Assembly (NCBI GenBank): GCA_947465255.1
Contig: CANIAA010000001.1
Coordinates: 1-45,234, forward strand
DNA length: 45,234 bases
Direction: 5' to 3'
DNA from: Flavobacteriales bacterium
GTDB taxonomy: Bacteria; Bacteroidota; Bacteroidia; Flavobacteriales_D; Sanyastnellaceae
Part shown: piece by piece, positions 7,925-36,391 of the stretch
How positions within the stretch are numbered: position 1 is the first letter of the stretch
Layout of the letters: each line of letters begins with the position of its first letter
Translations under genes and position numbers: made by a program
The notes under the pieces: model-generated
Seen by the model: only the letters and a program-made list of their open reading frames with translations
What the model was told of the DNA's origin: nothing
The model's database searches: none

Positions 7925-9076
7925 TTGCAACCACAAAATACCGTGAGCGACAAGAGACTTTCCATACTATTTACATCGGGTTGGTATCCCAGCAAGGCAC
8001 ATTCTACCGTGGGCAACTTCGTGCAACGGCATGCCGAGGCGGTGGCTACACGATGCGATGTATGGGTCTTGTATGTTGCCTCCATGCCCCAATGGCAAGG
8101 TCCTCCCAAGATTGAAGAGCACCACGAGAAAGATGTAACTACGGTAATCGTCTACTGCCGACCCGGCTTTTTCGCCAAGCGCAAGGCATTCATCAAAGGC
8201 GCTTATCATCTGATTCGTTCGAAAAAAATTCAATTCGACGCCGTTCATCATAACGTGCTTTGGCCGCATGGATGGCAGCCTAGGTGGTTGCACAGCAAAT
8301 TCAATTTACCCTACTTAGTGACAGAACACTGGACGGGCTATGACCCTATCAATGCAAACAAGCGACATCCGCTGCTGTTATGGATGTCGAAATTCGGTGC
8401 GCGAAAGGCGTCGTTCCTCTGCCCGGTCACCATGGATCTGCAGCAAAAGATGATTGACTTCGGAATAAGTGGCAACTATCGCGTTGTACCCAATGTTGTC
8501 GATACTCGTCTATTTTCAATGGCAGCTCCCGAGGGCGGCACAATTCGATTCTTACATGTAAGCTCATTAGTGGACGGCCACAAAAACATCAGTGGCATTT
8601 TGCGCGTTTGGAAAAAGATTTCAGATCGACTGCCCAACGTGCACCTCACACTTGGCGGCGATGGCCCGGTGGAACATTGGAAGCAATATGCGGCGAACCT
8701 TGGTATTCGAGCGAATTGCATCGACTTCTTTGGTGAAACCACCTGGCAAGGTGTTGCGCAAAAAATGGAATCGTCGCATGCTCTTTTGCTCTTCAGCAAT
8801 TACGAAAACTTACCGTGTGTGATTGTAGAAGCCCTTGCCTGTGGCCTTCCGGTGATTAGCACGCGCGTAGGCGGAATCAGCGAACACATCAGTGCCGAGC
8901 GCGGTATTCTTGTTGAACGCGGCGATGAAGATGCATTACAACGCGCCATTGAAACCATGGCAAAGAACATACACACGTACGACCAATCTGCGCTGCGCAA
9001 TTATGCGCTGGAGCGATTCAGTAATGAGGCGGTGGCGACGGAGTTTGAAAAGCTGTATAGGATTATAGCGAAGTAG
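7925..9076 (+). CDS. Glycosyltransferase, GT4 (GT-B fold) family
   Basis: 383 aa with a TTG start. The C-terminal sugar-donor region EALACGLPVISTRVGGISEHI is typical of GT4/GT1 enzymes. Confidence 0.8.
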   Translation: MQPQNTVSDKRLSILFTSGWYPSKAHSTVGNFVQRHAEAVATRCDVWVLYVASMPQWQGPPKIEEHHEKDVTTVIVYCRPGFFAKRKAFIKGAYHLIRSKKIQFDAVHHNVLWPHGWQPRWLHSKFNLPYLVTEHWTGYDPINANKRHPLLLWMSKFGARKASFLCPVTMDLQQKMIDFGISGNYRVVPNVVDTRLFSMAAPEGGTIRFLHVSSLVDGHKNISGILRVWKKISDRLPNVHLTLGGDGPVEHWKQYAANLGIRANCIDFFGETTWQGVAQKMESSHALLLFSNYENLPCVIVEALACGLPVISTRVGGISEHISAERGILVERGDEDALQRAIETMAKNIHTYDQSALRNYALERFSNEAVATEFEKLYRIIAK

Positions 9077-9249
9077 GATTGTAGCATATAGGGCGCAGTC
9101 GAGGCCACATTCGAAATACAGCTAACGTTGCCAAAGCGAAGTCGAGGGTAATCCGTCCTCACTCTTCACACTAGACGTCCTTATGGTTCAAAAAAAATTG
9201 AAGGTTGAAAGTTGACACACCCTATAATCCTACAATCCTATTTTCCTAC
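9064..9249. repeat. Inverted-repeat intergenic element (heptamer-periodic arms) spanning the junction of two convergent genes
   Basis: Left arm 9074-9093 is TAGGATTGTAGCATATAGGG. The reverse complement of 9220-9240 is TAGGATTGTAGGATTATAGGG. They share an identical 11-mer TAGGATTGTAG, and both gene stops lie inside the arms. The 126-nt core contains GCCAAAGCGAAGT (9130-9142) and an A8 run. Confidence 0.6.
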
Positions 9250-11500
9250 TATCCTTCTTCCGATAGAAATAGAAAATCACCAACGGCGAAATCAGCATCT
9301 CAGCAATCAGCGCAATAAAGAGCGTAAGACTGATGAGCAACCCGATATAGTATGTGCCGAGGAAATCAGAGAGAATCAGTGTTAAGAAGCCACCGCTCAA
9401 AATGAGCGTGGTTACTACCATTGCTTTACCTGTGGTGAGAAACGTTCGCTTCACTGCGTACATGGGCGTGAGGCCCTCGCGCAACAACGTGCGCACGCGC
9501 GCAAGAAAGTGAATCGTGTCATCCACCGCTATTCCAAAGGCGATATTGAACACAATTGACGTGCTCACCTTCAACGGAATTCCCATAGCGCCCATGATAC
9601 CTCCCACAATCACCAGCGGTATCATGTTGGGAATAATCGTCAGTAATATCATCTTCGGTGATTGGTACACGATACCCATAATCAATCCGATAACCACCAT
9701 GGAAAGCAATAAATCCCACACCATGTTCTCCACGAGGTAGCGATTATTCAAGTCAATCAAGTGCGCTGTGCCGGTGACCTTGTAACCGAATTTCGATTGA
9801 CAATTTTGAGCGATGAAGCCATCGAGCGAATCATTCAATTGCTCGTAATGCACGCGACCAAAATCACCTATTCTACCTGCAATGCGCAACACCTTCTTCT
9901 CAGGGTTGTAATGCAGCTTAACGACTTCAGTCAACTCCTTTCTACTCAAAAATTTATTGAGCCTTCGCAACTCCACACTATCGGCGGGAACAACATAAAA
10001 ATCCTGACTACCTGCGTTCATGGCCATATTGGCATTCTTCAGAATTTCATTGTAGGAAAGCAAACTTCCCACTCCATACACGTGGGTTAGCCAATGCTGA
10101 AGGGTATCCATATCCTTCAAAAATTGCTTCTCATTGATCTGATTGACATCTTCGAGCACGACGGCCATTTCGAATGGTCGGCAACCTGAGTAATGATCCT
10201 CCATAAAGAAGAACTCCTGTTTCAGTAAATGCTCATCACGCAAATCCTCAAGCATCTTATTGTCGACCTCGACATGCATGATACCATACACGCTCGCCGC
10301 ACAAACGATAAGAGTCCCTGCAATTACTGCGCGTCGTTTTCGGATAATCCAGCGCAAAGCGCCGTGTAATTTCATAGTCCAGAAATCATCCGATGTTGCA
10401 TAAAGATACAGGCGCTTCGGTGTTGCCAAAAACAAAATCGCCGGCAACATGGTGTAGGTTAAGCCGTAGGCCAGCATGATGCCCACCGACGTATAAATTC
10501 CAAAATTGCTGATAGGCTCAATGTTCGACAACACCAGCGTCAGAAATCCGATAGACGTTGTGAGCGCCGTGAGAAACGTGGCCAGTCTAATGCTCTTGAA
10601 TGCATAGCGGATTGCATCGCGCTTCTCTCGTCCATTGCGCAATTCTTGCATGTACTTGGTCAGCACATGCACCGAGTCGCTCATGCCCACTACAAAAATG
10701 ATGGTAGGCAGAATGGTGAGCATCAAATCCAGATCATTGCCCAGGATGCGAATAAATCCTAGTGTCCAGAGAATGGAAATTAAAACTACCAGTGTTGGAA
10801 TAATGATTCCCCAGGCCGAGCGAAATGCAATAAATAAAAACAGCGTGGTAAGAATTAAGCTCAAGGAAATAAACAGAATGAGCTCTTGAATCATCAGCTC
10901 CACGTACAATCGTTGTCCGAGTGCTCGCCCGATAAGATGGGTTTTATGAAATCCGAATTCCTTGACTGCTGCTTCAATGTCGAGCGATAGCTGATCACAT
11001 CCTTGCTTGGAAAGTTTCTCTGTATGTCGGATATTGATGGCAACCGAGTGAAAATCTTCTGCGAAGAAATAGCCCAGCATGCCTTCTGAACGAGCAATGT
11101 CCGTGGAGTCAATCGCAAAATTCTCGGGTTCATTCCAGCGCAATACCGGTAAGGACATCAGCTGCCCCAGCAATGGATCACGCACATAGCGTGTTAGCCG
11201 TGTGGGGCCCATAGCCGCGACGACATTCGGAACGGCCTGCAAGCGTGAGTTGAGACTATCAACCTGTTGGAGAAAACCAGCGTCGAACACGCTTCCGTCG
11301 TTCTCCAGCACAACCACAAAAAAGTCGTTGTCCGTTTCGAAATTATCGCGGAACTCCAGGTAGAAATCCGTTTCGGGGTCATCCTGAGGAAAAAAAGCTT
11401 CGAAATCATAACTGAACTTCAATGTAGCAGCAAGCCATATGCAGCATGCGCTGACTATGGCAATTACCACCAGTGATATGATTGAAACCCTTCTGCTCAT
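9230..11500 (-). CDS. RND-superfamily / MMPL-type exporter (12-TM, two large extracytoplasmic loops)
   Basis: 756 aa. Two homologous halves each have a loop followed by a 5-6-helix hydrophobic bundle, in an SSD-like arrangement. Confidence 0.8.
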   Translation of the reverse strand: MSRRVSIISLVVIAIVSACCIWLAATLKFSYDFEAFFPQDDPETDFYLEFRDNFETDNDFFVVVLENDGSVFDAGFLQQVDSLNSRLQAVPNVVAAMGPTRLTRYVRDPLLGQLMSLPVLRWNEPENFAIDSTDIARSEGMLGYFFAEDFHSVAINIRHTEKLSKQGCDQLSLDIEAAVKEFGFHKTHLIGRALGQRLYVELMIQELILFISLSLILTTLFLFIAFRSAWGIIIPTLVVLISILWTLGFIRILGNDLDLMLTILPTIIFVVGMSDSVHVLTKYMQELRNGREKRDAIRYAFKSIRLATFLTALTTSIGFLTLVLSNIEPISNFGIYTSVGIMLAYGLTYTMLPAILFLATPKRLYLYATSDDFWTMKLHGALRWIIRKRRAVIAGTLIVCAASVYGIMHVEVDNKMLEDLRDEHLLKQEFFFMEDHYSGCRPFEMAVVLEDVNQINEKQFLKDMDTLQHWLTHVYGVGSLLSYNEILKNANMAMNAGSQDFYVVPADSVELRRLNKFLSRKELTEVVKLHYNPEKKVLRIAGRIGDFGRVHYEQLNDSLDGFIAQNCQSKFGYKVTGTAHLIDLNNRYLVENMVWDLLLSMVVIGLIMGIVYQSPKMILLTIIPNMIPLVIVGGIMGAMGIPLKVSTSIVFNIAFGIAVDDTIHFLARVRTLLREGLTPMYAVKRTFLTTGKAMVVTTLILSGGFLTLILSDFLGTYYIGLLISLTLFIALIAEMLISPLVIFYFYRKKDSRKIGL

Positions 11501-31743: not shown

Positions 31744-32841
31744 CTACTTGCCTTTAAACGTAAGTGTTTTCTTGGGGCGATCGCTCTTCGGCTTGTCTTC
31801 GCTTGACTGTCGCGGGCGCTCCGGCTCGCTTTCTCGTGGTTTTTGCGGGCGAGCGGCCGGCGATTTTGTTTTTGGAACGAATGGTTTGTCGACCCATTCA
31901 GCTTCTGCCGGTGCCTCCTTTTTGGGAGCCCTGGCGGGTCTTACGGATGGCCCATCTCCTTCTTCTTCTGAAAGCAACTTGGTATTTTCCCAACCCTCGG
32001 GGATTTCGCCAGTCTTATTGAACTTGATGCCCATCCTGGTGAGCAATATCTTTCCTTCCTTGAATAGCATGCCTGCCGCCTTTTTGAAGGTCTTCTTTGA
32101 CATATGCAGGCGCAGTTTGACTTCTTCCGGATCGGTATCGTCGTTGAGGCGCACGTATCCACCATTGGCCTCGAGGTAGTTCATGATTTTCACTTTCGCG
32201 TCGTCGAGCAATTCCATGCCCTCGCGCTGCATACTCACTACAATATCTTTTCCCTCGACCTTGCGCACGTAGCCCTTTATCTTTTCACCAAGTCGCACGT
32301 TATCGGTCATTTCCTGACGGAAAAGAGCACCTACGTATTTGCCGTCGATGATAACACGGCGACCGATTTCAATTTTCTCGGCGATGGTCATCATCACTTC
32401 GTCGCCACGCTTGTAGGGAATTTCCCGACCGCGCAAATAGCGATTCAGTTTGGTGGTGGCATAGAGGCGGCGGTTTTCCGGATCGTCGAGCAAAATGACG
32501 AGCGCCATGCGGCCATCTTCCAAACTCTCCACCTGTTCGGCATGCGGAATAAGGATATCGCGGCGCGTACCAATGCTGATGAAGGAGCCCAGACTATTGG
32601 AGCTGAGCACGCGGTAGCAGCCCACTTCGCCCACCTGCAACGAAGGCAACTCGGTGGTTGCCTCGAGGTTGCGTTCTTCGTTGTAGTAGGTGAATACCTC
32701 CACTTCAGTGCCGGGTTCTGTTTTGGGCTTGAGTTCTCGGCGGCCTATAAACACATTATCGGCCTCACTGCCCAGCAGATAGCCCTTTTCAACTACCTCA
32801 AATACAGGCAGGGTTTGAATTGTACCCGGATGAATTTGCAT
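31744..32841 (-). CDS. CvfB/YitL-family S1-like RNA-binding protein with basic disordered C-terminal extension
   Basis: ORF 31744..32889, with the likely start at Met17 (MQIHPGT). Repeated S1-like segments are followed by a winged-helix region, GGYVRLNDDTDPEEVKLRLHMSKKTFKKAAGMLFKEGKI. An extra tail of about 85 aa is rich in P/K/E/R. Confidence 0.8.
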   Translation of the reverse strand: MQIHPGTIQTLPVFEVVEKGYLLGSEADNVFIGRRELKPKTEPGTEVEVFTYYNEERNLEATTELPSLQVGEVGCYRVLSSNSLGSFISIGTRRDILIPHAEQVESLEDGRMALVILLDDPENRRLYATTKLNRYLRGREIPYKRGDEVMMTIAEKIEIGRRVIIDGKYVGALFRQEMTDNVRLGEKIKGYVRKVEGKDIVVSMQREGMELLDDAKVKIMNYLEANGGYVRLNDDTDPEEVKLRLHMSKKTFKKAAGMLFKEGKILLTRMGIKFNKTGEIPEGWENTKLLSEEEGDGPSVRPARAPKKEAPAEAEWVDKPFVPKTKSPAARPQKPRESEPERPRQSSEDKPKSDRPKKTLTFKGK

Positions 32842-32954
32842 GATTTCCTCGCATTTTCTCGGCAGGCGAGATTGCCTCCGATTGTGCAAAGAAACGGCTA
32901 ATGTTCGGGTGTTCGGTCATAAACAACGCAAAGTGCTAACAATGGGGTGAGGGA

Positions 32955-33242
32955 GAAGTGCAATGTACGAAGTGCGAAGTGCGGTCAAGGCATGACTTCT
33001 GATGGGTTGAAGGGGTGCCAAATGAGGCGCAGCTGCCATGCGCTGCTCTCTCACGATGAGGGGCCGTGGGTAAGGCCCGGGGCGCAAGGACGAAGGGCGA
33101 TGCAAAGCGTTGTGTTTCCGTAGGTTGTGCGCAAGCGAAGGGACAAGCTTATAGGAATAGTATTCCACCATACATCGTAGCAAGCCTCGCCGCAGGGCAT
33201 TAGACTCGTCCATTTGTCGGCGAACACATTCCGCACCTTCGG
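32955..33242. repeat. Heptamer-arm element copy (GAAGTGC variant) with long GC-rich core, in the 5' region of the cvfB-like gene
   Basis: Left arm 32955-32984 is GAAGTGC AATGTAC GAAGTGC GAAGTGC GG. There is a partial inverted match CCGCACCTTCGG at 33231-33242. The core contains GCGCAAGCGAAGG (33129-33141). Confidence 0.4.
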
Positions 33243-33364
33243 CATAAATAGCGGACACTGGCATAAAGCTCCTTCAGACTCATCATCAACTTAGCCCTTG
33301 AAAAGTAATGCGCATTATTCGTTCTAATTGGTTAATTATTATTTACCTTTACAACATCGTTCAC

Positions 33365-33553
33365 ATGAAGTGTTCGGAATTATTGAGGAAACTGAAACGA
33401 GCAGGTTGGATGGAACAATCGCGACGCGGATCGCACGTCAAATTGATGCATCCTGAAAGACCCGGTGTCATCATCTTTCCTGATCATGGAAGCAACGAAC
33501 TAGGCAAAGGACTTCAACTCAAAATCATGCGCGACGCAGGACTTATTCCATAA
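33365..33553 (+). CDS. hicA: Type II toxin-antitoxin system toxin, HicA family (mRNA interferase)
   Basis: ORF 33308..33553, with the likely start at Met20. MKCSELLRKLKRAGWMEQSRRGSHVKLMHPERPGVIIFPDHGSNELGKGLQLKIMRDAGL matches the YcfA/HicA pattern (G-W....GSH..........P.H...L..G....I...AGL). Confidence 0.9.
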   Translation: MKCSELLRKLKRAGWMEQSRRGSHVKLMHPERPGVIIFPDHGSNELGKGLQLKIMRDAGLIP

Positions 33554-33559
33554 ACAGTA

Positions 33560-33979
33560 ATGAAGACGAAAAACAGCAATCAGCCCAAACGTGTCGTTCC
33601 TTCCGCTATCACATGGCAACTGGAGGAGACAAAAACGGGATTTTCTGCCTACTGCGAAAAATATCCCCTCTATTCTACGGCACGCACCCTCGAATCACTG
33701 ATGCCGCAATTGAACGAGGCAGCAGCTCTCTACTTCGGCATCGCGAAAGAAGCAGATACTCATTTTCGCCACACCCTGCACATCGATTTCCAAACCTTTT
33801 TTATTCATTATAAAATCCTGAACGCCCGCATTCTCGCCGAGCGCATCGGTATGAGTCCCGCCCTGCTCTCCCAATACATCCGAGGTAAAAAAAATCCATC
33901 CCTACCGCAGCTGCAGCGCATACGACATGGCATGATGCAGATTTCGCGCGAACTGGCGGGAGTGAGGTTTGGGGGATGA
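33560..33979 (+). CDS. hicB: HicB-family antitoxin with C-terminal XRE-type HTH
   Basis: 139 aa, starting 6 nt after hicA. The N-terminus is HicB-like (ITWQLEETKTGFSAYCEKYPLYSTARTLESL). The C-terminal HTH is ILAERIGMSPALLSQYIRGKKNPSLPQLQRI. Confidence 0.8.
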   Translation: MKTKNSNQPKRVVPSAITWQLEETKTGFSAYCEKYPLYSTARTLESLMPQLNEAAALYFGIAKEADTHFRHTLHIDFQTFFIHYKILNARILAERIGMSPALLSQYIRGKKNPSLPQLQRIRHGMMQISRELAGVRFGG

Positions 33980-34167
33980 AGGAATGACCAATTACTAATG
34001 ACGAATGACTAGTGACTAGTGACTAGTGACTAATGACTAATTAGGGTGAGGGTCCGTTTTTTCGCCAAGAGCCATTGTGCCCAAGCTGAGGTCCTTTCGT
34101 TTGGGCACAATCCCCTTTCGAAAACCACCGGCCCTTGCCGTCCTTAGTCCTTCGTAATTAGTCCTTA
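33980..34167. repeat. Heptamer-arm element copy: 9 tandem heptamers plus GG, 91-nt core with 11-bp hairpin, inverted 30-nt arm
   Basis: 33982-34046 reads GAATGAC CAATTAC TAATGAC GAATGAC TAGTGAC x3 TAATGAC TAATTAG GG. The hairpin is ATTGTGCCCAA (34074-34084) / TTGGGCACAAT (34101-34111). The reverse complement of 34138-34167 is TAAGGAC TAATTAC GAAGGAC TAAGGAC GG. Confidence 0.6.
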
Positions 34168-34226
34168 AAAAATTCTACCCGAAAAGCGGTATTGCCGTCA
34201 CCCGGTAAACCACTGACTTTTGATTC

Positions 34227-34370
34227 ATGAGCCAATGCGCCACCACATCTTCCAAAAGCCCCTGCATAGTCATGCAACTCATGGCTCATTCCTGCGCTAA
34301 GAAAAAAGAGTGCTGCAAGAAGTATAAGCACGGGAAGCGTTGCAAGAAGTGCCCGAAAAGCAGTAAGTAG
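34227..34370 (+). CDS. Candidate micro-ORF: 47-aa Cys/Lys-rich peptide
   Basis: My own translation: MSQCATTSSKSPCIVMQLMAHSCAKKKECCKKYKHGKRCKKCPKSSK*. It has 7 Cys, 13 Lys (15 Lys+Arg), and a CC-x4-H-x3-C-x2-C cluster. Its TAG stop is the first triplet of the next repeat arm, as at the bona fide GT4 and permease gene ends. It is below the ORF-track cutoff and has no recognisable promoter. Confidence 0.3.
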   Translation: MSQCATTSSKSPCIVMQLMAHSCAKKKECCKKYKHGKRCKKCPKSSK

Positions 34371-34519
34371 GTACGAAGTACTAGGTACGAAGTACGGAGA
34401 GTGTCATTTTTTTTTAGTGAGTGCACGCGTGCCGAAGCGAAGTAACTATCTCTTGGGATAGAAGCCTTCGGGTCAAGGCGCGGCGTTCACCGTACTTAGT
34501 ACTTTGTAATTCGTACTTA
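34368..34519. repeat. Heptamer-arm element copy (GTAC variant): 30-nt imperfect inverted arms around a 92-nt structured core
   Basis: Left arm 34368-34397 is TAGGTAC GAAGTAC TAGGTAC GAAGTAC GG. The reverse complement of 34490-34519 is TAAGTAC GAATTAC AAAGTAC TAAGTAC GG (25/30 identical). The core has a T9 run, the palindrome GCACGCGTGC, GCCGAAGCGAAGT, and a nested CCGAAG...CTTCGG stem. Confidence 0.65.
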
Positions 34520-35965
34520 TTGTGCTCCCTTTTCTAGATTACTATTCCTCTTGCTATACAAGAAGTACACGATCACACCCAGCGTGCCCCATATGATGAA
34601 CGCATACCATGTGTGGATGCGCACCTGGGTCATAAGGAAGATATTGAAGAGCACACCGAGCGGTGCAATTATGTTGACCATCGGGGTTCTGTAAGGGCGT
34701 TCCAAATCCGGTTCGCGCTTGCGGAGAATCAATACTGCGAGACAAACCATCGAGAAGGCGAGCAACGTTCCCATTGAACACATTTCCGAGATGTTGTTGA
34801 TGGGTGTTACAGCCGCAACGATGGAAACAATCAATCCTACGAGGATTGTGCTCTTATAAGGGGTCTTGAACTTTGGGTGAAGTGCACCAAAGATGCCTCG
34901 TGGCAACAAGCCATCTTTCGCCATACCGAAGAAGATACGGGTTTGACCCAGCATCATCACGAGCATTACCGAAGTGAGACCCGCTACAGCTGCAATTGTA
35001 ATCGGATAAACCGCCCACGATATACCGGCACCGGAGAAGGCCGAAGCAACAGGAGCTTTCAAGTCGAGTGTTGAATATGGCACCATACCGGTCAAAACCA
35101 ACGATACCAAGATGTAAAGAATCGTGCAGATAACAAGCGATGCGATGATGGCAAACGGAACGTCCTTCTTAGGATTGATGGCCTCGCCTGCCTGTGTGCT
35201 CACTGCATCGAAACCGATGTAGGCAAAGAACACAATCGTGGCTGCTGTGAGAACACCGCCGAAGCCGAAGTTTACATCACCCGTTGGATTACCCATCGCG
35301 TCGAGTATCGGCTGCTCAGCAGGAATGAAAGGCGTCCAGTTTTCAGGATTCACATAGAATGCACCGGCAATAATGACAAAGAGAACAACAGCTACCTTCA
35401 ATACAACAATGAGGTTGTTGGTGCTAGCAGCTTCTTTAATGCCCTTAATGAGGATACCCGTTACCAGCCACGTAATGAGGAATGCAGGTAGATTGAATGC
35501 GAAACCACCATATGTAATCGGGTCGTTGTTGAGCCAATCGGGAATGTGCAGTCCGAACATGTGGAGGAGTTTCGAGAAGTAACCACTCCAAGCAACCGCC
35601 ACGGTGGTGGCCCCCATCATGTACTCCAAAATCAGATTCCAGCCAATAAACCAAGCAAATAGCTCACCCACGGTTCCGTATGCATAGGCATAGGCAGAAC
35701 CTTCCACCGGAAGAACAGACGCAAACTCTGCATAGCAAAGCGAGGCGAACAAACAGCCGATACCGGCAATTACGAACGAAAGCGCCAACGCCGGTCCGGC
35801 ATGGTCGTGTGCGGCAATACCGGTTAGAGTGAAAATACCGCCACCGATGATGGCGCCGATACCCAATGAAGTAAGACCCCACTTGGTAAGGATTCGCTTC
35901 AGTTCACTTTTACCTGCTTCGGCATGAAAGGCAGAGATTGGTTTTTTTCTCCAAACACTTGACAT
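34517..35965 (-). CDS. APC-superfamily amino acid permease (cationic amino acid transporter-like)
   Basis: ORF 34517..36052, with the likely start at Met30 (MSSVWRKKP). It has 12 or more TM helices and the N-terminal motif GLTSLGIGAIIGGGIF. Confidence 0.9.
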   Translation of the reverse strand: MSSVWRKKPISAFHAEAGKSELKRILTKWGLTSLGIGAIIGGGIFTLTGIAAHDHAGPALALSFVIAGIGCLFASLCYAEFASVLPVEGSAYAYAYGTVGELFAWFIGWNLILEYMMGATTVAVAWSGYFSKLLHMFGLHIPDWLNNDPITYGGFAFNLPAFLITWLVTGILIKGIKEAASTNNLIVVLKVAVVLFVIIAGAFYVNPENWTPFIPAEQPILDAMGNPTGDVNFGFGGVLTAATIVFFAYIGFDAVSTQAGEAINPKKDVPFAIIASLVICTILYILVSLVLTGMVPYSTLDLKAPVASAFSGAGISWAVYPITIAAVAGLTSVMLVMMLGQTRIFFGMAKDGLLPRGIFGALHPKFKTPYKSTILVGLIVSIVAAVTPINNISEMCSMGTLLAFSMVCLAVLILRKREPDLERPYRTPMVNIIAPLGVLFNIFLMTQVRIHTWYAFIIWGTLGVIVYFLYSKRNSNLEKGAQ

Positions 35966-36060
35966 AGATCTTTGATTTTTGGTGAGTGATGAACGGCAAG
36001 TATAAGGAATAATAGATAAATGGGAATTTTGTCTTAGATTAGCACTTGTCAAAAAAGAAT

Positions 36061-36082: not shown

Positions 36083-36391
36083 ATCCGCTTGCTTAACCTT
36101 AATTAACCTTAACTACTCTTAATCAGAGAGTACTCTTCAATATCGTTGATTGTATAATCTAGTTCTTATTGTTGAAATACACACTTGAAACGGGGGGAGT
36201 AAATCGAAGGTTACGTTTTGTTGTAATTTTTTTTTTTAGTAACAACTAGAGGAATGGCAGAAAATCACTGCTTCAGGTGGTTTGCAGTGTGGATAGGCGA
36301 AGGCATTTCGCTGGAATGGACGCGCCGCAGCGCATCCAAAGAACCCTGCTTCTTGTGAATAGCAGCGTGTGTATGCGAAGGGAAATAAAAA

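Follow-up and report, generated by a model that had tools for sequence, protein, structure and literature searches.

A 45,234-nt stretch of DNA from a Flavobacteriales bacterium (GenBank assembly GCA_947465255.1; contig CANIAA010000001.1, positions 1 to 45,234; the whole stretch is called the window here) carries four related intergenic elements, designated E1 (32955-33260), E2 (33983-34167), E3 (34368-34519) and E4 (9056-9255). The inverted arms of the elements are made of about four 7-nt units (8-nt units in E4) and close with GG/CC. These elements are probably gene-less members of the palindromic insertion class to which the intervening sequences (IVSs) of 23S rRNA genes belong; by analogy with the latter, they would be transcribed as part of neighboring mRNAs, cleaved by RNase III, and selfish or neutral with respect to the host. 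Members of the class are recognized by two inverted arrays, each of about four units of 7 or sometimes 8 nt, with a GG/CC close and a resulting stem of ∼30 bp. Full-length members carry an Avd-like gene of the PF05635/TIGR02436 family between the arms, and those located in 23S rRNA genes are the classical IVSs. The class itself is already known; the novelty here lies in a subfamily that is gene-less, intergenic and lineage-specific and has a conserved core of its own. A preliminary description of the window, drawn up from the letters alone, had not recognized a described repeat class in the elements, a view that had to be given up: the architecture matches that of 23S IVSs (PMC4990558) and of paired heptamer arrays in Xanthomonas (PMC4692102), and relatives carrying a PF05635 gene were identified.

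Repeat arms, conserved core and further copies

A scan of the window for three consecutive KARKKRC units, allowing up to two mismatches, gave 15 matches against 0.23 expected from shuffled sequences, and all were inside the arms of the four elements. Tandem Repeats Finder reported a period of 7 at 32955-32983, 33983-34041, 34140-34167, 34371-34396 and 34492-34519, and a period of 8 rather than 7 for the right arm of E4 at 9.2 kb. The preliminary description had quoted six arms as four heptamers plus GG, and all six sequences were found where it had placed them. The architecture stood in part: period 7 was present in five arms, but the left array of E2 extends to 8.4 units and the arms at 9.1 kb are built of 8-nt units, so that the division of 9064-9093 into heptamers was forced. 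Complementarity between arms was 25/30 for E3, as previously counted (27 counting G-T pairs), and 21/30 for E2 (23 counting G-T pairs) rather than the 20/30 given earlier. The E4 arms at 9059-9087 and 9227-9255 were 79% complementary (23/29) and share the 11-mer TAGGATTGTAG that had already been noticed.

The motif TGCCNAA is present in all four elements, 33 to 37 nt past the last unit of the left arm. Core sequences reported for E4 and E3 were exact (GCCAAAGCGAAGT at 9130-9142 and GCCGAAGCGAAGT at 34431-34443), whereas the core of E1 had been misplaced. By position it is GTGCCAAATGAGG at 33016-33028, 33 nt past the arm as in E2 and E3, and the core-like stretch at 33129-33141 is part of a second, degenerate half-element within E1. 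As a whole, E1 is a degenerate composite that lacks a convincing right arm. Searches of Rfam identified only a tRNA at the gathering score across the whole window, and no family matched 32850-34600 even at E ≤ 10.

Using the pattern TARKKACKARKKACNARKKACKARKKACGG, at least 120 further loci with at least 127 arms were identified in metagenomes. Among the arms listed, 28 had a partner matching at 23/30 positions or more within 1.2 kb, at spacings from 6 to ∼1150 nt. About ten full homologues of E2 and E3 were present among the matches listed; in these, the interior is 90 to 95 nt long, and both a GG-AGGG start and a central hairpin, TGTGCCNAA...TTNGGCACA, are conserved. Nine full-length copies from at least five loci could be aligned with an invariant TGCC and interiors of 91 to 95 nt, in agreement with the homologous family sharing a conserved core that had been proposed. 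A covariance model built from these nine copies, several of which are orthologues of one another, found matches only in contigs of the same lineage and none in ∼20 other Bacteroidota loci. The model missed E1 and E4, and E4 is joined to the family by an exact 14-nt core common to another copy. As the elements are near-palindromic, strand scores of the model were unreliable for calling orientation. The searches showed the window subfamily to be confined to one freshwater Bacteroidota lineage.

Repeat arms of this general kind have a wider distribution. Heptamer-periodic inverted arms were met by chance among 80 permease loci, in Acidobacteriota, Gemmatimonadota, Ignavibacteria and Lysobacter, and plain heptamer arrays lacking a partner arm were common in metagenomes and phage contigs. 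Four viral contigs (L083, L084, L086 and L087) carried partnerless GAATTAC arrays of four to eight units with a GG end, directly upstream of phage open reading frames (ORFs); searches of viral contigs for four-helix-bundle proteins returned no match.

Arms of the same design around PF05635/TIGR02436 genes

In contigs L118, L127 and L171, a four-helix-bundle gene was located between the same TARKKAC...GG arms. The interiors in L118 and L127 are 455 to 461 nt long, and the encoded proteins matched PF05635 (E = 1.5e-37 and 1.9e-24) and TIGR02436 (E = 2.5e-37), carry the family name "23S rRNA intervening sequence protein" and share weak similarity with Avd of diversity-generating retroelements. 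In L177, a frameshifted copy of the gene is found next to an element that has no ORF and has GTAC-type arms resembling those of E3, and a further right arm follows. The genes in L160 and L167 were found independently of the arm pattern, and both are bracketed by heptamer arrays of quite different sequence.

A sample chosen without regard to repeats comprised six homologues (L209 to L214), from Empedobacter, Sulfurimonas, Ochrobactrum, Anaerolineae, Woesebacteria and Latescibacterota. Five of the six genes had their own inverted 7- or 8-nt units, complementary at 18 to 20 of 21 bases, with the first unit adjoining the upstream stop codon, and all six occupied short gaps between two housekeeping genes of like orientation. 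Comparable periodicity was seen in 0.6% of random 120-nt windows. Overall, copy-specific 7- to 8-nt arms flank 11 of the 12 PF05635/TIGR02436 genes examined, which come from many phyla, and all 12 (L209 to L214, L118, L127, L160, L167, L171 and L177) are co-oriented with their neighbors and lie between protein-coding genes. Many of the 12 ORFs continue into the arm downstream, which adds C-terminal tails, for example ...RNS or ...HNS. In Ochrobactrum soli (L211:281-400), eleven 8-nt units (GTAGGGCA) precede the four-helix-bundle gene; 8-nt variants of the arms therefore exist, as in E4.

By analogy with rRNA IVSs, an element would be co-transcribed within neighboring mRNAs and RNase III would cut its long ∼30-bp stem, which would uncouple the flanking RNAs. 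As 7 cannot be divided by 3, stop codons occur in the arms in every reading frame; through these and RNase III cleavage together, insertion at the ends of genes would be tolerable. The copies would then be selfish or neutral and not regulatory devices of the host. Inverted arms and repeated cores would further make the sites recombinogenic, with the interior of E3 flipped in a relative and a hicAB segment gained or lost between the cores of E1 and E2 (see below).

Several observations weigh against this interpretation. The window contains no four-helix-bundle gene detectable by ORF scans or by tblastn with two such proteins, and no rRNA gene detectable with Rfam, so membership of the IVS class rests on architecture and relatives. 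Similarity between the interiors of gene-less and gene-carrying elements was not detectable, and we infer the descent of the former from the latter. The proposed mechanism leaves the strongly conserved central hairpin without a role. The stems are imperfect, with Watson-Crick pairs in only 74% of cells. Pairs of near-identical copies are absent save for local tandem duplications, and recent mobility is therefore not supported. Several copies are also located 11 to 70 nt upstream of start codons in divergent regions, where neutrality is not obvious because cleavage would cut 5′ leaders. Conserved 23S rRNA motifs were not found in the fetched loci, and an rRNA-borne IVS with these particular arms could not be shown. 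No paper was found tying heptamer pairs to PF05635 genes or to gene-less elements like those of the window, and literature searches with the unit sequences as strings gave no matches.

A broader scheme can be outlined, although it is rather doubtful as a whole. Cyanobacterial short tandemly repeated repetitive (STRR) hairpins, the GGGAATC pairs of Xanthomonas, 23S IVSs and the window elements would form one pan-bacterial selfish class, whose autonomous form would encode the Avd-like protein. Its elements would insert in sense orientation directly at stop codons within transcription units and be excised from the transcript by RNase III. Spread could possibly involve an RNA intermediate, the four-helix-bundle protein acting together with a reverse transcriptase, as Avd does in diversity-generating retroelements. 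The window copies would be non-autonomous, and the TGTGCCNAA hairpin would serve as a recognition or crossover site.

Genomic setting, arm variation and rearrangements

The window represents ordinary chromosomal DNA from a freshwater member of the Bacteroidota. Its permease shares 82% identity with that of a Flavobacteriales metagenome-assembled genome (MAG), and a lake metagenome contains an identical ClpB. Convergent glycosyltransferase and MMPL-family genes flank E4, and the stop codons of both are within its arms (9074-9076, of the glycosyltransferase gene, in the left arm; the MMPL-family gene, 9230-11500 on the reverse strand, ends in the right arm). E3 separates a 47-amino-acid (aa) Cys-rich ORF, whose stop codon is the first TAG of the left arm, from a convergent amino-acid permease gene (34517-36052, reverse strand), whose stop codon is the outermost TAA of the right arm (34517-34519). 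E2 lies downstream of a hicA/hicB-like pair and begins 4 nt past the hicB-like stop codon (33977-33979), and E1 is in a divergent region. Across the copies collected, the outermost TAA or TAG of an arm is often the stop codon of the adjoining gene, and there were nine cases of a long ORF ending exactly at the first TAR of an arm. Coordinates are given in Table 1.

Table 1. Components of the four elements and the small genes bracketed by them (window positions)
Feature	Position	Strand	Details
E4 left arm	9056-9093	+	8-nt units TAGGATTA TAGCGAAG TAGGATTG TAGCATA TAGGG
E4 interior	9094-9220	+	127 nt; core TTGCCAAAGCGAAGT at 9128-9142; short TTGAAGG/TTGAAAG heptamer run at 9194-9215; A8 at 9190-9197
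E4 right arm	9221-9255	-	CCTACAAT units
E1 left half	32955-33030	+	arm GAAGTGC AATGTAC GAAGTGC GAAGTGC GG; 31-nt spacer; core GTGCCAAATGAGG
E1 remainder	33031-33260	+	degenerate; direct heptamer-like run at 33082-33108; second core-like GTGCGCAAGCGAAGG at 33127-33141; weak right-arm-like CCGCACCTTCGG at 33229-33240
hicA and hicB-like genes	33365-33979	+	hicA 33365-33553; hicB-like helix-turn-helix gene 33560-33979
E2 left array	33983-34046	+	8.4 units AATGACT/TAGTGAC; end TAATTAGGG
E2 interior	34047-34137	+	91 nt; T6 run; perfect central hairpin ATTGTGCCCAAGC / GTTTGGGCACAAT at 34074-34111
E2 right arm	34138-34167	-	reverse complement TAAGGAC TAATTAC GAAGGAC TAAGGAC GG
47-aa ORF	34227-34370	+	Lys- and Cys-rich (8 Cys); bracketed by E2 and E3; conserved in L104 and L108
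E3 left arm	34368-34397	+	TAGGTAC GAAGTAC TAGGTAC GAAGTAC GG
E3 interior	34398-34489	+	92 nt; T9 at 34407-34415; core GTGCCGAAGCGAAGT at 34429-34443; imperfect central hairpin
E3 right arm	34490-34519	-	reverse complement TAAGTAC GAATTAC AAAGTAC TAAGTAC GG

No Pfam or NCBIfam match was obtained for the 47-aa ORF, and the public collection has no record of it as a called gene. A 115-aa ORF (32917-33264, reverse strand) extends across the degenerate E1 and was called as a gene in one public assembly (L217); it is most likely spurious. Its reading as a degraded four-helix-bundle gene was rejected, as it had no Pfam or NCBIfam match. An intergenic 10-nt tandem repeat (TTAACCTTAA, three copies) was seen at 36092-36123, upstream of the permease gene.

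Each copy had been described as using its own heptamer flavor, and this proved to be so. Across 22 distinct elements, unit positions 4-5 were identical between arms in 43/66 unit pairs, compared with 19.6 ± 4.5 when arms were shuffled among elements. Copy-specific flavors common to both arms of a copy are thus real; in E2 the flavor of the right arm is unlike that of the left. The further proposal, that the flavors are a signature of compensatory change preserving a long stem, was not upheld. Unit position 1 does not co-vary (41/66, versus 35 ± 3.9 shuffled), and pairing of stem cells in the nine-copy alignment was 80% versus 76% in column shuffles, with the 74% of Watson-Crick cells already mentioned. 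The covariation score was above all but 1 of 500 shuffles, in an alignment where several of the nine rows are orthologues. As RNAalifold mis-registered the arms of this alignment by 14 nt, the stem structure was set by hand. The commonest mismatches, T.C and G.A, fall at unit position 1, where T or G occurs independently in each arm, and since G.U (26) was only slightly commoner than A.C (15), no strand is clearly favored. In a 98.9%-identical strain (L215, ∼1823-1836) the left arm of E3 is longer by 14 nt, equal to two units, which identifies the arms as hypermutable repeats; at 83 to 86% identity, orthologous elements differ in both unit number and flavor. Arm variation is only partly compensatory, and turnover of repeats with homogenization between arms explains the flavors at least as well as selection for pairing.

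These data bear on whether the elements serve the host as RNA structures at gene ends, with the stem under selection, acting as terminator substitutes, stabilizers of 3′ ends in the manner of repetitive extragenic palindromic (REP) sequences, or insulators. Such a role is unlikely. In its favor, predicted RNA folds are very stable relative to shuffled sequences (z = −6.8 for E3, −6.2 for E2 and −3.7 for E4), arms adjoin or contain stop codons and variable unit positions match between arms. No terminator-like site was predicted in 32700-34800, and E3 stands in place of the plain intrinsic terminator, unaccompanied by an element, that was found downstream of the permease gene in the closest reference genomes. 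However, no U-tract follows the stems, the T runs of the elements being inside, after the left arm, and not behind a stem; E1 and many relatives (L203, L140, L175 and L191) are found a short way upstream of start codons, in divergent regions; and the orientation of the elements is not conserved. A quarter of stem positions are mismatched, mostly T.C and G.A, and the counts of G.U and A.C favor neither strand clearly. Close relatives also live without the elements, none of which was found at the orthologous site in the 80 permease loci of reference genomes. An intrinsic terminator as such was rejected, as none was predicted and the stems lack a U-tract.

The rapid change in unit number, the copy-specific flavors and the abundance of partnerless heptamer arrays could also be accommodated if the copies were immobile and of separate origin, a local hairpin or stop-codon context having been expanded into heptamer arrays by replication slippage. 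This is very improbable, given that equal-length interiors (91 to 95 nt), the invariant TGCC and the conserved central hairpin recur at unrelated loci, that arm phase relative to the closing GG/CC is constant, and that in other copies a conserved protein gene lies between the same arms.

Comparison with two related contigs identified rearrangements at the elements. L104 is collinear with window positions 35600-31905 (86% identity), and within it the E3 interior (34398-34489) is flipped relative to the flanking genes (L104:1112-1204), with 77/92 identities in the flipped orientation and 50 in the collinear one. Because the arms are too imperfect, the E3 flip is not an assembly ambiguity. The orthologue of E2 in L104 is collinear (76 identities, versus 65 flipped). 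L108 (83% identity) matches the window up to 32953 and then again from 34078. In place of E1-hicA-hicB-E2 it carries one hybrid element, its only one, in which a left half homologous to that of E1 is joined to the right half of E2 within TGCCNAA(GC)TGAGG. A segment of ∼1.06 kb (window 33024-34084, covering the rest of E1, hicAB and the left half of E2) is missing from L108 (compared at L108:869-942).

The flip, and the hybrid junction within the shared core, would both fit a DNA recombination system acting on the elements as invertible segments or as attachment sites for cassettes. Its recombinase, working on the inverted arms or the conserved TGTGCCNAA hairpin, would invert the interior and bring in or remove small gene cassettes such as hicAB. 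The differing flavors of the E2 arms are as a hybrid site would show, and in L191 three elements alternate with genes (element-gene-element-gene-element-gene), the duplicated copies differing in a 6-nt block right after TGCCAA. Even so, such a system is quite unlikely. Only one flip and one indel were observed, and other orthologous pairs are collinear. Near-identical strain contigs reaching E3 (L215 and L216) are in the window orientation and give no sign of within-population switching. No recombinase was identified among the seven other window ORFs scanned (300 to 414 aa), the Bacteroidetes promoter motif TAnnTTTG was not seen by eye in the interiors of L203 and L140, and the R″/R′ boxes of integrons (RYYYAAC/GTTRRRY) are absent. 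Moreover, 30-bp inverted or 15-bp direct repeats in hairpin-prone DNA suffice for single recombination events without a dedicated enzyme.

For a Bacteroidetes invertible promoter, one fixed inversion between species-level relatives was seen, but no −7 motif was visible by eye in the L203 and L140 interiors, and this reading is not favored. Two further candidates were rejected. For a Xer/dif-like site, the spacer of the central hairpin is 12 to 20 nt and not 6. For a sigma-54 promoter, the spacing and −12 box were unfit for the reverse complement of the core in every copy inspected by eye.

Terminal inverted repeats, small size, intergenic location, many copies in one lineage and an apparent insertion preference for TAA/TAG are what a classical MITE (miniature transposable element with inverted repeats) would display. 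Nevertheless, copies are highly divergent, and near-identical pairs occur only as local tandem duplications. Direct target-site duplications are absent, the flanks being TAG...TTA and thus inverted, as is the GTAG/CGTC tetranucleotide typical of REP sequences, and the arms are variable-number tandem repeats rather than fixed transposase-binding ends. A MITE is accordingly judged highly improbable.

Other repeats were seen in the contigs collected. Tandem paralogues encoding a secreted protein of ∼380 to 430 aa that starts with MRLTLTTLALLLSA are present in L175, L132, L111, L140, L191, L203 and L208, and for several of these (L203, L140, L175, L132 and L191) a heptamer-armed element lies 11 to 70 nt upstream of the start codon. 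L111:3560-4180 has two copies of another small repeat, with GTAATCC/GTAATTC arms and a CCCACGATTGAAATCGTGGG hairpin, where L203 and L140 have one 151-nt element; such sites therefore accumulate nested insertions. At L200:1766-2062 and L176:3745-4134, three to four heptamer-armed hairpins of ∼97 to 100 nt each are arranged head to tail, and whole elements can therefore be tandemly amplified. Downstream of the permease gene in a Chitinophaga MAG (L005:11600-11850), a separate family of repeated hairpins, ATCCCGTGGCG...CGCCACTGGGAT, was found; its loops contain GCGAAGCGAA, which recalls the GCGAAG of the window core.

Comparison with known repeats and implications

IVSs with an S23p/four-helix-bundle ORF are known from Coxiella, Leptospira, Salmonella and others, and some published IVSs are also ORF-less. 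The window elements resemble them in having terminal inverted repeats that form a stem of ∼28 to 30 bp (25/30 in E3, 21/30 in E2 and 23/29 in E4), in having relatives whose window-type arms enclose a PF05635 gene, and in being sporadic among relatives, like a selfish element. In Coxiella, the 23S IVS has a 28-bp terminal stem of three to four tandem heptamers, with a number that varies between strains, and RNase III cuts in the stem (PMC4990558); arms of about three to four tandem heptamers, variable in number between strains, are thus a further shared feature. The window copies differ in lying between protein-coding genes and not in rRNA helix 25 or 45, and in having no ORF, an interior of only 91 to 127 nt and a conserved central hairpin of their own.

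Each Xanthomonas genome contains 70 to 75 pairs of convergent GGGAATC arrays with four units preferred, which were read as G-quadruplex motifs (Rehm et al. 2015, PMC4692102). These arrays and the cyanobacterial STRR sequences resemble the window elements in being intergenic tandem heptamers that favor four units, with opposite-strand arrays able to form a stem-loop, in lying near stop codons and in varying in unit number between relatives (PMC4692102). In Xanthomonas, however, one G-rich unit dominates a genome, whereas window units conform to KARKKRC without G-tracts and their flavor is set per copy. Copy-specific flavors, and units unable to form G-tracts, argue that four-fold heptamer arms need no quadruplex explanation. 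The Xanthomonas study drew no link to PF05635 genes (PMC4692102).

Like REP sequences, bacterial interspersed mosaic elements and REPINs, the window elements are multicopy extragenic palindromes at gene ends and between convergent genes, and would be transcribed with their neighbors. REPs, in contrast, are 20 to 40 bp long, end in GTAG/CGTC, are near-identical within a genome, are linked to REP-associated tyrosine transposases (RAYTs) and have neither heptamer periodicity nor copy-specific arms. The GTAG/CGTC tetranucleotide is absent from the window elements, and copies are divergent; a genome-wide RAYT search was not made.

A resemblance to integron attC sites also exists. Both are imperfect palindromes whose sequence varies by copy without loss of complementarity between arms, both come after small genes, toxin-antitoxin pairs among them, and one gain or loss of a gene segment had its junction inside an element. 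The hicAB genes and the 47-aa ORF share one orientation and lie between elements, but E3 and E4 are flanked by convergent housekeeping genes. On inspection, however, the arm ends (TAAGTAC.../...GTACTTA) have no RYYYAAC/GTTRRRY boxes, no integrase was identified among the seven other window ORFs scanned (300 to 414 aa), the crossover is apparently central rather than at the outer end, and ∼150 nt exceeds the usual range of attC. The identification as an attC site was rejected on the missing R″/R′ boxes.

Tandem heptamers near the ends of bacterial genes have been noted since 1990, and rRNA IVSs have been known for about as long. To our knowledge, no origin or function is accepted for either, and the two are kept apart in the literature. 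One arm design was found around three kinds of element in at least six phyla: hairpins lacking a gene, 150-nt elements that have a conserved core, and four-helix-bundle genes. If this link is true, much unexplained intergenic repeat DNA would have one explanation, the G-quadruplex reading of the four-unit preference would be argued against, and the very abundant PF05635 "four helix bundle protein" would gain a testable genomic context. For annotation, ORFs called across arms, such as the 115-aa ORF over E1, are likely to be spurious, and real genes can owe their final codons and stop codon to an element. The bracketing of PF05635 genes in many phyla, in sense orientation and starting at stop codons, may be of more interest than the window itself.

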